Of a stretch of 64,000 nucleotides of DNA, positions 62,305-64,000 are shown piece after piece. This DNA comes from Escherichia phage ECML-4. How positions within the stretch are numbered: position 1 is the stretch's first letter; each line of letters begins with the position of its first letter. Under the pieces are notes generated by a model, which was given only the letters and a program-made list of their open reading frames with translations, had not been told where the DNA came from and ran no database searches. Both the position numbers and the translations under genes were made by a program. The DNA is taken from the sequence record JX128257. One strand, 5' to 3'.

Positions 62305-63168
62305 ATGACAACTACATTTAATAAAAACGTGAGACTGAATCTGGCTTTTGGTAATGCTGTAGGGGACGTGACCAACCCCGACTTTAGCAAAATTCGCAAT
62401 CAGGCAAAACTCGTGCTGGAAGAGACCCGCGAACTTCTGGAAGCGGCTTATTACGATCATCAAGTGGTTCTAACATTAGAATTGAATCCTCGAGAAAGCG
62501 AGACGCCGACCACTACCGAAGATCTGATGAAAGCCATCATGGACGCGCAGGGTGATATCACTACTGTTAACGACGGTGTGGCCCATATCGCGGGTTTCAA
62601 TGGCGATGAGTGTTTACAGCGCGTGTTTGCTTCCAACATGAGCAAGTTTATCCGCTCTGAAGATGAAGTCGGTCCGGCTCTGGACTATTACTATTCTCGC
62701 GGTTTCCCTGATGGGCAATTGCGTGTGGAAGGCGAATTCCCTCAGGCATGTATTAAAGTTAATGAAACTGTCGTTTGGAATGGTAAAGAATATCCTAAAG
62801 GGAAATTCCTTAAAAACATGGCCGTTTTCCAAGAGCCTGATTTTTCTGACATGCTGACCAAAACTCCTTCCCGTCAGATCAACGATATCGTTGCCAGCAT
62901 GGCGATTGAAGAAGGTCAGGTGTTTATCGATGATCTCAATGGCGTGGCGTTGGTATCCCCGAACACATTGGGTGTAATCCTTTCCATGGCTGTTGAAAAA
63001 ACTTCTCAACCTGTAGAGATCGACGGGCAAATCGAAAGTTATGTGCCAGCGTTCATCGTGGATGACACCAATATGCCTAAGCTGTGTGGGGTGTGGGGTT
63101 CTAATGTTCGTGTTTATGCGAGCACTCCAGTGCAGAACACGGTAACACACCTCTCCCGTATCGATTAA
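62305..63168 (+). CDS. putative all-alpha NTP pyrophosphohydrolase (MazG-like N-terminal motif, tentative)
   Basis: LVLEETRELLEAAYY resembles the EExGELxEA metal-binding motif of MazG/HisE-type NTP-PPases; start ATG 62305 after GGAG. Confidence 0.35.
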   Translation: MTTTFNKNVRLNLAFGNAVGDVTNPDFSKIRNQAKLVLEETRELLEAAYYDHQVVLTLELNPRESETPTTTEDLMKAIMDAQGDITTVNDGVAHIAGFNGDECLQRVFASNMSKFIRSEDEVGPALDYYYSRGFPDGQLRVEGEFPQACIKVNETVVWNGKEYPKGKFLKNMAVFQEPDFSDMLTKTPSRQINDIVASMAIEEGQVFIDDLNGVALVSPNTLGVILSMAVEKTSQPVEIDGQIESYVPAFIVDDTNMPKLCGVWGSNVRVYASTPVQNTVTHLSRID

Positions 63169-63203
63169 TATAAACCGTTATTCATTAAACAACAGAGGCT
63201 ATA

Positions 63204-63228
63204 ATGGCCTCTGTTTTTGTATTCTAGA
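63204..63228 (+). terminator. rho-independent terminator
   Basis: CAGAGGC-TATAATG-GCCTCTG followed by TTTTTGT. Confidence 0.6.
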
Positions 63229-63238
63229 GAGGATACCA

Positions 63239-64000
63239 TGAAAGATAAACCGTGTGACATTCCTTATTGCGGTGTTCGGGAAACCAAAATTAAATCTGCA
63301 CACCCCACGTTAAGTCCATTCCATAAACAACTCGCATACGAATGGATGAGCGAGCGCTATAAGATCCACGTGAGAAAGGACGTCCAACGTCTTCCTGCTC
63401 CTTGGACGGATAATCCCATACTACGGCAGGTCAAGTTCTGTAACGTCCGGAGAGAGCACGACAGGCAGTCTCTTAACCTGATCAACAATATCGTCAAGAA
63501 CGATGCTCTGGGCATTGCCGACAAGATGTTCAACTGTGTTCTGTTCCGCATGTTCAACCTCTGGGACCCGATCAAGGCTATCGGTGACGCTCGTACTATC
63601 AAAGAGTTCGCAAACATCGATCTTGATGCAACCCGCAAAAGTCTTCAGGAATTTGAGGCCAACGGTGGTAAGATCTTCACCAATGCCTTCAACACAGGCG
63701 GTCTAAAGCAGTGTCTGGCGTTCCCCGAACTCGTTGTCAACCACAAGGAGCAGCGCTTTGGTGGTATGATGGTTAAGGTACACCGTGTTGGCCAGGGTAT
63801 CGTTGATGAATTGGATTACAAGGTCGCCAAGAAGCTGGTTGAAGAAAATCCTGGGGAGTACACGATCGAGGGCTGGGAGCCGTACATGCCGATGCGTGTT
63901 ATCCGTTCCCTGAAGGCATTTGTCAACAAGTATCCTGATTATTTCAATGATCTTTTACGTCTTGACTCTCCGCTGAAAGTTTACCAGCGCATGTATGACG
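63239..64000 (+). CDS. hypothetical protein, 5-prime partial view (runs off window end)
   Basis: ATG 63239 (MKDKPCDIPYCGVRETKIK...) stays open to position 64000; not in the ORF track because no stop lies within the window. Confidence 0.5.

Follow-up and report, generated by a model that had tools for sequence, protein, structure and literature searches.

Gene content at the end of the window

The window is a 64,000-nucleotide stretch from Escherichia phage ECML-4 (JX128257) and shares 99.6% nucleotide identity with Salmonella phage ViI (Vi01, Kuttervirus). The two genes at its right end, designated here as ORF-A and ORF-B, lie downstream of regA, which belongs to the gp45-gp44-gp62-regA replication-accessory unit and directly precedes ORF-A (Table 1). 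The start codon of ORF-A is the ATG at 62305, with GGAG located 10 nt upstream and the regA stop 17 nt before the start; the stop codon occupies 63166-63168. A mechanical ORF list places the start at 62218, but all homologs begin with MTTTF, so 62305 is the true start. The protein is 99.3% identical to ViI Vi01_131c across all 287 residues, has the same neighbors, and is covered end to end by a phrog_2144 match (E 5.8e-132). The corresponding RefSeq entry (YP_004327502, ViI orf00161) is already named "MazG-like pyrophosphatase," which is a computed annotation.

Table 1. Coordinates of the genes, domains, motifs, and other features discussed in the text.
Feature	Position in window	Strand	Remarks
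gp243, predicted 5-hmdU DNA kinase (Lee et al., 2018, 2021)	2-718	-	From comparison with ViI
regA, translational repressor	61824..62288	+	Pfam Translat_reg, E 6.2e-35; 100% identical to ViI regA
ORF-A, 287 aa plus stop	62305..63168	+	ViI ortholog Vi01_131c (orf00161, "gp161")
Conserved NTP-PPase module, ORF-A residues 1-185	62305..62859	+	
EExxE motif, E39-E40-T-R-E43	62419..62433	+	Inside the helix of the initial annotation; aligns with DR2231 EExxE
Variable insertion between core helices, residues 50-76	62452..62532	+	Gap in most relatives of 155-170 aa
Second acidic motif, D80-A-Q-G-D84	62542..62556	+	D84 aligns with D of the DR2231 ELAD motif
K167-F-L-K170, in motif G-K-x-Y-P-x-G-K-F-L-K	62803..62814	+	K167 and K170 invariant across 70 sequences
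Beta-rich C-terminal domain, residues 186-287	62860..63165	+	Ackermannviridae-type proteins only
Intrinsic-terminator-like hairpin (11-bp stem, 3-nt loop, then T-run)	63191..63223	+	Between ORF-A and ORF-B
ORF-B, first 254 of 407 codons	63238..64000	+	ViI gp160 (Vi01_130c, YP_004327501); Pfam PF18723 "HMUDK_hel"

ORF-B had initially been described as an unassigned gene that begins at 63239 and is truncated by the window end. The truncation stands, the start is one nucleotide earlier, and the gene is ViI gp160 (labeled orf00160 in a note of the ViI record), which encodes a clade-1 aGPT-Pplase and is a published thymidine-hypermodification gene. The fragment in the window, which represents the N-terminal 62% of the protein, is 100% identical to gp160 over 254 aa and matches PF18723 with 139 bits (E 2.7e-40; cut-off 25). 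The full-length ViI protein scores 279.5 bits (E 4e-83) for the same family.

The matches to phrog_2144 and PF18723, together with the conservation of both genes in 277 phage records, indicate that ORF-A and ORF-B are real genes rather than chance ORFs. The antisense ORFs at 62614-63150 and 63357-63638 (minus strand) have no PHROG family match, and the longest stop-free antisense stretch differs among relatives (95 to 290 aa); no antisense gene is supported inside ORF-A or ORF-B. The hairpin between the two genes was located by a consensus scan and has a predicted RNA fold of -21 kcal/mol (z -3.98), a stability that none of 200 shuffled sequences reached. A terminator is annotated at the same site in phages Mooltan and Matapan. 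The sequences and annotations of both genes are already known. However, our literature search found no experimental study of the ViI orf00161 protein and no published enzyme assay of a protein from this phage subfamily, and the words MazG and pyrophosphohydrolase are absent from the 2018 and 2021 ViI papers.

Family, fold, and motifs of ORF-A

Based on direct searches, ORF-A has no Pfam family match, even at E values up to 1 for PF03819, PF01503, PF12643, and PF08761, and no NCBIfam match. The family assignment comes from its relatives. A profile built from 21 Ackermannviridae orthologs found 342 proteins, all of which share positions 1-185. Among 50 such relatives examined with Pfam, PRA-PH was found in 26, MazG in 17, and MazG-like in 13; for example, PhiW-14 gene 206 scores 30.5 bits for PRA-PH (cut-off 21.3) and 26.8 bits for MazG (cut-off 22). 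When all PDB sequences were searched, the ORF-A family profile matched DR2231 (E 3.2e-8). A non-circular HMM, from which ORF-A and the four proteins closest to it had been excluded, gave 179.5 bits for ORF-A and 32.8 bits for a DR2231 fragment. The relative P0132 bridges both groups: the profile of Ackermannviridae proteins alone detects it at E 2.5e-20, and its own sequence, searched singly, matches DR2231 at E 5.7e-4. The Ackermannviridae-only profile itself found no solved MazG structure among the PDB sequences (chance match to 2dyy, E 0.21), and its hhalign comparison with the DR2231 fragment is not significant (E 0.056). For this reason, the assignment of ORF-A is transitive, supplemented by one structural match. 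The name "PAS domain-containing protein" carried by some UniRef entries is without significant support, because Pfam PAS_4 matches ORF-A only at chance level (E 0.17).

The AlphaFold model of ORF-A has a pLDDT of 86.4 when derived from an alignment of 70 sequences and 47.7 when derived from the 21 close orthologs. Its core helices span residues 4-14, 27-48, 71-96, 100-112, and 119-130, and are followed by a small beta subdomain with strands within 139-163. The four-helix-bundle core that defines the all-alpha NTP pyrophosphohydrolase superfamily (MazG/HisE/dimeric dUTPase; Moroz et al., 2005) is present in ORF-A. A Foldseek search of the model against PDB was negative; the best-scoring entries were cytochromes P450 (E 0.73). 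Taken together, these results indicate that the MazG-like ORF-A is a genuine NTP pyrophosphohydrolase homolog. The MazG-like candidate proposed initially is therefore retained on the basis of the family profile, the relatives, and the match to DR2231, and not through any Pfam or NCBIfam match of its own.

The helix peptide that had been likened to a metal-binding helix, LVLEETRELLEAAYY, corresponds to ORF-A residues 36-50 (nt 62410-62454), and the likeness is borne out by the alignment of E39-E40-x-x-E43 with the EExxE motif of DR2231. In DR2231, this motif consists of E46/E47/E50; these residues and the aspartate aligned with D84 are metal ligands of that enzyme. Among the 70 sequences compared, for which the mean column identity is 21%, E40, E43, and D84 are invariant and D80 is nearly invariant; E39 is invariant within Ackermannviridae. 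In ORF-A, A81 occupies the place of the glutamate of the DR2231 ExxD motif (a residue that is Ala in 5i0m), and D80 is located one residue earlier, four before D84. Judging from this alignment, D80 could plausibly stand in for the ExxD glutamate. The region of K167-K170 aligns only weakly with GKQLKP of DR2231 (second domain score -2.5).

DR2231 from Deinococcus radiodurans (PDB 2yeu, 5hva, and others) is the best solved relative of ORF-A by sequence. It shares with the ORF-A family the EExxE motif, the D of ExxD, and a "G-x-D-a-d ... V-x-x-s-N-x-S-K" helix. However, it has only ~144 aa and lacks the ~45-residue alpha/beta subdomain (ORF-A ~115-165), the insertion at 50-76, and the C-terminal domain. 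Work ascribed to Goncalves et al. in 2011 and Mota et al. in 2016 is said to have found DR2231 active on dUTP only. Another solved protein, Exig_1061 from Exiguobacterium (PDB 3nl9; a structural-genomics "putative NTP pyrophosphohydrolase"), has 17% identity to ORF-A, was missed by sequence profiles, and has nothing corresponding to ORF-A residues 186-287.

The conserved core of ORF-A carries two fast-evolving additions, namely, the insertion at 50-76 and the C-terminal domain at 186-287. Mean pairwise identity is 45% for the former and 47% for the latter, compared with 86-88% in the core flanking the insertion. An HMM of the C-terminal domain matched proteins P0001-P0123 only; PhiW-14, 15599, and the other loci gave no match, nor was any fold match found for this domain. 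Its pLDDT ranges from 52 to 91 by block, with residues 269-276 below 50. The C-terminal tail is invariant (T-x-L-x-R-x-D).

Thymidine hypermodification genes in ViI-like phages

The DNA of ViI carries 5-NeOmdU (PMC5889632, PMC8989533), and in the ViI-like Kuttervirus group from which the window derives, 5-(2-aminoethoxy)methyl-dU replaces ~40% of T. The hypermodification of phage DNA suggested in the initial annotation is thus supported by the ViI-like origin of the window, and the kinase and PLP enzyme it pointed to are gp243 and the decarboxylase gp226 of ViI, respectively. In the ViI pathway, serine transfer is carried out by gp247 (clade 2 Pplase) and decarboxylation by gp226 (Lee et al.). 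In addition to gp247, the ViI genome has gp67 (PF18748, E 2.6e-116).

ORF-B belongs to this published post-replicative hypermodification gene set. The gp160 protein is listed as aG/PT-PPlase1 in Table 3 of Lee et al. (2018), and five ViI lysates, that of gp160 among them, together rebuilt 5-NeOmdU in vitro (Lee et al., 2018). A clade-1 Pplase, a 5-hmdU DNA kinase, and a clade-2 Pplase occur together in the ViI genome, and the trio is clustered in locus L032. In SP10 gp186, the clade-1 Pplase and the kinase form a single fused protein. We found no pairwise similarity between gp160 and its supposed paralog gp247, and no solved relative of gp160 is detectable by sequence.

For removal of the canonical nucleotide, an experimentally proven enzyme is gp18 of Acinetobacter phage SH-Ab 15599, a related thymidine-hypermodifying phage; gp18 converts dTTP and dUTP to the monophosphate and pyrophosphate but does not cut 5hmdUTP (PMC13458397, 2026). 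This protein is a dUTPase of the dimeric type (PF08761; T4 gp56-like) fused to a dNMP kinase, and represents a branch other than that of ORF-A. One half corresponds to ViI gp65 (E 1e-15) and the other to gp63 (E 8e-7); gp63, the gene of which lies outside the window, also matches PF08761 (E 8.3e-10). Orthology between ORF-A and the 15599 dTTPase/dUTPase was considered and rejected, as a search of gp18 with the ORF-A family HMM gave no match; ORF-A also lacks a PF08761 match. Furthermore, 15599 encodes a separate relative of ORF-A (AXF41522), and ViI has a third MazG-like gene, gp11. Clearing of the canonical base is more likely the task of ViI gp63, the ortholog of a proven enzyme, than that of ORF-A.

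Possible roles of ORF-A

From the gene identity, fold and family, motif conservation, and synteny observed for ORF-A and ORF-B, we infer the catalysis, substrate, timing, and pathway role of ORF-A as follows. Residues 1-185 would constitute a MazG-superfamily NTP pyrophosphohydrolase of the all-alpha kind, nearest to the DR2231 branch, followed by the small beta subdomain. On two helices, E39/E40/E43 and D80/D84 would hold divalent metal ions, and water activated by these ions would split a (deoxy)nucleoside triphosphate at its alpha-beta phosphoanhydride bond, yielding monophosphate and pyrophosphate. ORF-A is probably co-expressed with the replication genes, as it is the last gene of the clamp/clamp-loader/regA unit and is followed by the terminator. 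Its likeliest job would be conditioning of the pyrimidine dNTP pool during 5-hmdU-DNA synthesis, with a dUTP-like substrate as for DR2231. It would be a second enzyme beside gp63, which would serve as the main dTTPase/dUTPase by orthology with the 15599 enzyme. Overall, we consider it fairly probable that ORF-A is a MazG-superfamily pyrophosphohydrolase of the DR2231 branch and an enzyme of the pyrimidine dNTP pool beside gp63.

The initial annotation favored a different role, in which ORF-A excludes the canonical base; the enzyme would then be a hypermodification-specific dTTPase that might or might not also act as a dUTPase. Several observations agree with this proposal: the NTP-PPase fold, the order gp44-gp62-regA-ORF-A-gp160 that is kept in all Ackermannviridae loci examined, and the family members retained in the T4-like phages PhiW-14 and 15599. 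Both of these phages replace T through 5-hmdU and have the family member beside a hydroxymethylase/dNMP-kinase/dUTPase module, and PhiW-14 infection induces a dTTPase activity (cited in PMC13458397). However, the proven 15599 enzyme, gp18, matches gp65 and gp63 rather than ORF-A, and PhiW-14 and ViI retain the same hydroxymethylase/kinase/dUTPase_2 module. The distribution of the family also argues against this proposal. Members are present in the N4-like Cbunavirus and in Samunavirus, the host names of which are rare or absent among 5-hmdU-kinase matches when counted by organism name; for example, Pectobacterium has 14 carriers of the ORF-A family, yet is outside the ten commonest kinase names (the tenth has 6 records). 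In addition, the Vibrio Ackermannviridae phage 1.255.O and locus L032 keep the gene downstream of regA, with the Pplase genes elsewhere or not seen nearby. Moreover, pool clearing by ORF-A is not needed to explain the pathway, because ViI already has gp63 and gp11. We thus regard a dedicated role in excluding the canonical base as unlikely; based on these homologies, the removal of ordinary thymidine nucleotides is probably not done by ORF-A and is better assigned to gp63. Retention of the ORF-A family beside the proven dTTPase/dUTPase type is seen in ViI, PhiW-14, and 15599. It is rather improbable that 5-hmdU phages use ORF-A as a dedicated second pool enzyme, acting on a substrate unlike that of gp63, or as a partner of gp160 in the pathway. 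As such a pool enzyme, it might be active on dTTP only or on a modified dNTP and help to set the proportion of modified to unmodified T (~40:60). In either case, its insertion and C-terminal domain would be hypervariable through conflict with host defenses.

An arms race would likewise be reflected in these variable parts if ORF-A had no part in hypermodification and were a phage NTP pyrophosphohydrolase of general function, either clearing away damaged or non-canonical nucleotides (house-cleaning) or acting in counter-defense by destroying a nucleotide alarm or signal. This role is doubtful, because Ackermannviridae, PhiW-14, and a related Vibrio phage all keep the gene at its position after the clamp-loader/regA genes, which suggests a role linked to replication, and no defense- or signaling-related neighbors were seen. 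Nonetheless, the family has a broad and patchy range (T4-like, N4-like, and jumbo phages, and one 949-kb bacterial contig), and its gene is isolated among structural genes in phiA41 and SM1. The surface elements vary strongly, each independently, around a conserved core, and among Kuttervirus relatives the identity falls sharply precisely at the regA/ORF-A boundary (in locus L017, 98% for gp44, 99% for regA, and only 60% for ORF-A). The hypothesis of a catalytically dead protein with a binding or regulatory function, e.g., partnering gp160 or replication proteins via the C-terminal domain, is very improbable. The invariant E40, E43, D84, K167, and K170 and the nearly invariant D80, found amid a mean column identity of 21% in 70 sequences, form the pattern expected of a working active site, and the conserved part is the predicted catalytic core, whereas the variable parts are additions. 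This hypothesis would fit the lack of a Pfam match for ORF-A itself, the replaced ExxD glutamate, and the extra domain with its invariant tail; a precedent is provided by the dimeric dUTPases of staphylococcal phages that act as regulators (PMC5608427).

With ORF-A read as a probable pyrimidine dNTP-pool enzyme, the emphasis at this end of the window is corrected: the hypermodification gene located here is ORF-B (ViI gp160). The substrate of the DR2231-like enzyme and the activity of the clade-1 Pplase bear on a full account of restriction-enzyme-resistant phage DNA, and the same two enzymes are relevant to the enzymatic making of modified DNA.

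Two genes at the end of the window and their counterparts in ViI

Two plus-strand genes, ORF-A and ORF-B, occupy the final 1.7 kb of the window. They are preceded by genes for the sliding clamp, the clamp loader (gp44 and gp62), and regA, whose stop codon lies 17 nt from the start of ORF-A. The two are separated by a hairpin with an 11-bp GC-rich stem followed by a T-run (-21 kcal/mol; more stable than 200 of 200 shuffles), so ORF-A is the apparent last gene of a replication-accessory unit, which it looks to close. Antisense stop-free frames inside both genes are found with variable length (95-290 aa) in all relatives examined (loci L005-L031). 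These frames have no PHROG match and are probably by-products of codon usage rather than genes.

Over the 2.2 kb around these genes, the window shares 99.6-99.7% identity with Salmonella phages AR2819 and Vi01 (ViI) and with further Kutterviruses; matches to this region occur in 277 phage records. At the protein level, identity to ViI is 99.3% for ORF-A and 100% for ORF-B. Both correspond almost exactly to ViI genes that have been published and annotated.

Features of the window, ViI, and related phages discussed in this section
Feature	Record	Position	Strand	Remarks
gp243	window	2-718	-	predicted 5-hmdU DNA kinase; cut by window start
gp226	window	8532-9716	-	PLP decarboxylase
ORF-A	window	62305-63168	+	ATG start, GGAG 10 nt upstream; 287 aa; Vi01_131c (orf00161), 'MazG-like pyrophosphatase' in Vi01 RefSeq
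Antisense frame in ORF-A	window	62614-63150	-	
Hairpin and T-run	window	63191-63223		between ORF-A and ORF-B
ORF-B (gp160)	window	63238 to beyond window end	+	Vi01_130c (orf00160), 407 aa, 'conserved uncharacterised protein'
Antisense frame in gp160	window	63357-63638	-	
gp11	ViI (L004)	7891-8469	+	phrog_1247 'MazG-like'; no Pfam match
Vi01_023	ViI (L004)	15375-16037	+	outside window
gp63	ViI (L004)	36055-36600	-	Pfam dUTPase_2
gp67	ViI (L004)	38203-38865	-	5-hmdU DNA kinase; Pfam PF18748, E 2.6e-116
Gene after gp160	Vi01 (L001)	8775-10794		two ORFs, 491 and 183 aa, 8-nt overlap
Gene after gp160	Guerrero (L002)	8775-10796		one 2022-nt ORF, 'putative DNA-directed RNA polymerase'
AXF41522	Acinetobacter phage SH-Ab 15599 (L041)	20273-21121	-	
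Gene 206	PhiW-14 (L044)	29565-30581	-	339 aa; downstream of gp45-44-62-regA
Gene 209	PhiW-14 (L044)	31769-32161	-	between regA and MazG-like gene

The initial annotation had linked ORF-A to DNA hypermodification through a kinase and a PLP enzyme, which are gp243 and gp226 of ViI, both present in the window. Hypermodification in this phage group is established. In ViI, 5-(2-aminoethoxy)methyl-dU occupies ~40% of T positions; lysates containing gp67, gp160, gp226, gp243, and gp247 jointly rebuild this base on 5-hmdU DNA, with serine transfer by gp247 and decarboxylation by gp226 but without a step assigned to gp160 (PMC5889632, PMC8989533, PMC11721090). The gp226 protein is only 97% identical to that of ViI, and other window genes checked are mostly 99-100% identical; its match begins at ViI residue 30, so its N-terminus may differ from ViI or differ in annotation only. 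The labels 'terminase small subunit' (RefSeq Vi01 and many phage records) or 'baseplate hub' (some records) for gp67 and 'guanylate kinase' for gp243 look like propagated annotation errors. The annotation of Vi01_023 as 'QueC-like queuosine biosynthesis' raises the question of a putative second, 7-deazaguanine-type modification route in ViI.

ORF-B, which had been left unassigned, is identified as gp160 by Pfam PF18723 ('5-hmdU DNA kinase, helical domain'; clade-1 Pplase family) and its identity to ViI. The Guerrero record names its counterpart 'Pplase1 alpha-glutamyl/putrescinyl thymine pyrophosphorylase clade 1'. No solved relative of gp160 was detectable by sequence, and no pairwise similarity was found between gp160 and gp247. 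A PF18723-type domain is fused to the kinase in gp186 of Bacillus phage SP10 (Lee et al. 2018), a hint that offers a lead only, namely, that gp160 may assist the kinase on DNA. The gp160 orthologs are gp72 in PhiW-14 and, shortly before the hydroxymethylase, AXF41385 in 15599. A frameshift, or a different way of annotating, could account for the split of the gene after gp160 in Vi01 relative to Guerrero; no Pfam match was found for either Vi01 piece.

MazG-like fold and predicted active site of ORF-A

The MazG-like assignment in the initial annotation holds through the wider family, but not through direct matches of ORF-A, for which none was found in Pfam or NCBIfam. Only PHROGs names this protein (phrog_2144 'MazG-like pyrophosphatase', E 5.8e-132), and a profile of 21 Ackermannviridae orthologs found no solved relative. 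Searched against 1.84 billion representative proteins, this ortholog profile retrieved 342 proteins, nearly all of which align to positions 1-185 only and many of which are stand-alone proteins of 155-190 aa. Among 50 such relatives, Pfam PRA-PH, MazG, and MazG-like matched 26, 17, and 13, respectively. A profile of the relatives matched DR2231, a MazG-like NTP pyrophosphohydrolase of Deinococcus (E 3.2e-8 against all PDB sequences), and other MazG proteins more weakly. To exclude circularity, the HMM was rebuilt with the window protein and the four relatives nearest to it left out; this version gave ORF-A 179.5 bits (residues 1-196) and a DR2231 fragment 32.8 bits. One relative (P0132) bridges alone: the ortholog-only profile retrieves it at E 2.5e-20, and a single-sequence search connects it to DR2231 at E 5.7e-4. 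The AlphaFold model (70-sequence alignment; pLDDT 86.4, pTM 0.77) has five helices, a small beta subdomain, and a beta-rich C-terminal domain. Foldseek with this model found no match in the PDB; among predicted viral structures, it found phage 'NTP pyrophosphohydrolases' and one PhiW-14 protein.

The peptide originally quoted corresponds to ORF-A residues 36-50. In the alignment, the EExxE of DR2231 falls on E39-E40-x-x-E43 and the aspartate of its ELAD (ExxD) motif on D84. The residues of these DR2231 motifs (E46/E47/E50 and E79/D82) are its metal ligands. The ExxD glutamate, which is Ala in mutant entry 5i0m, aligns with A81, and the family instead has a near-invariant D80 one residue earlier; the second motif appears to be a variant of the classical one. 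An inactive binding protein is a rival reading. However, E40, E43, D84, G91, K167, and K170 are invariant in an alignment of 70 sequences whose columns average 21% identity, a pattern that favors a functional, metal-dependent active site.

In the core (residues 1-49 and 77-185), Ackermannviridae orthologs show a mean pairwise identity of 86-88%, compared with only 45-47% in the insertion (50-76) and the C-terminal domain (186-287). The latter two vary independently, as some orthologs share just one of them. The C-terminal domain has no fold or family match (Pfam, Foldseek), and its HMM found nothing outside Ackermannviridae-type proteins. In Kuttervirus relatives (L005-L023, ~10001-12150), protein identity drops sharply exactly at the regA/ORF-A boundary. 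For L017 and L021 compared with ViI, it is 98-100% for gp44, gp62, and regA, 59-60% for ORF-A, and 80-82% for gp160. The catalytic core holds 80-95% identity in these relatives while the insertion and C-terminal domain vary; the pattern is suggestive of diversifying selection or an exchange of modules.

Phage distribution and proposed role of ORF-A

Membership of ORF-A in the hypermodification pathway is favored by the order gp44-gp62-regA-ORF-A-gp160, kept in every Ackermannviridae locus examined, and by relatives kept in two other T-hypermodifying T4-like phages, both of which have been studied experimentally. These are PhiW-14 gene 206 (family HMM E 1e-36), which exceeds the Pfam PRA-PH and MazG cut-offs, and 15599 AXF41522 (E 3e-31), which adjoins dexA and lies ~3 kb from the kinase. 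Gene 206 has a ~190-residue N-terminal extension with no family match, and AXF41522 has a ~70-residue insertion where ViI has 27. PhiW-14 gene 209 matches Pfam YAcAr (E 5e-15), a YspA-related SLOG family; no ViI counterpart was seen at this position.

Other distributions count against membership and bear on the rival of an enzyme for general house-cleaning or counter-defence. The relative in N4-like Cbunavirus (phiA41) and that in Samunavirus SM1 are each isolated among structural genes. Conversely, 60-kb M6-type Pseudomonas phages and Bordetella and Bacillus phages do carry the 5-hmdU kinase but are absent among the ORF-A-family matches listed and their leading organism names. Pectobacterium has 14 family carriers and is absent from the ten commonest names among kinase matches (the tenth has 6 records), both being counts by organism name only. 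In Vibrio Ackermannviridae phage 1.255.O and a related contig, the relative follows regA and a GroES-like gene, without the C-terminal domain or an adjoining Pplase. Locus L032 keeps the MazG-like gene after regA but has its Pplase genes upstream of the clamp loader. From this synteny, the stable linkage of ORF-A is therefore to the replication-accessory unit, and shared descent can account for its association with 5-hmdU phages.

ORF-A had been proposed to remove the canonical nucleotide, and a dedicated dTTPase is accordingly a further rival. The proven enzyme of this kind, gp18 of 15599, hydrolyses dTTP and dUTP but not 5hmdUTP and folds as a dimeric dUTPase in its C-terminal half (PMC13458397, 2026). 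In this fusion protein, one half matches ViI gp65 (dNMP kinase, E 1e-15) and the other gp63 (dUTPase_2, E 8e-7), whereas the ORF-A family HMM found nothing in gp18. A dUMP hydroxymethylase-dNMP kinase-dUTPase_2 module adjoining uvsX is common to ViI, PhiW-14, and 15599; in ViI, the operon runs gp67 kinase-dUMP hydroxymethylase-dNMP kinase-gp63. This shared module suggests that a better candidate for canonical-base clearing already exists outside the window, and the removal role fits gp63 better than ORF-A. Counting gp11, ViI encodes three NTP pyrophosphohydrolase-type proteins, and this additional MazG-like gene also weighs against assigning ORF-A to the pathway.

The analysis establishes gene identity, fold, motif conservation, and synteny, whereas catalysis, substrate, timing, and pathway role are inferred. 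ORF-A is best read as a predicted DR2231-like, metal-dependent (d)NTP pyrophosphohydrolase. It would probably be expressed together with the replication genes, its substrate would most likely be a pyrimidine dNTP, and it would most likely serve alongside gp63 as a second enzyme that conditions the nucleotide pool.
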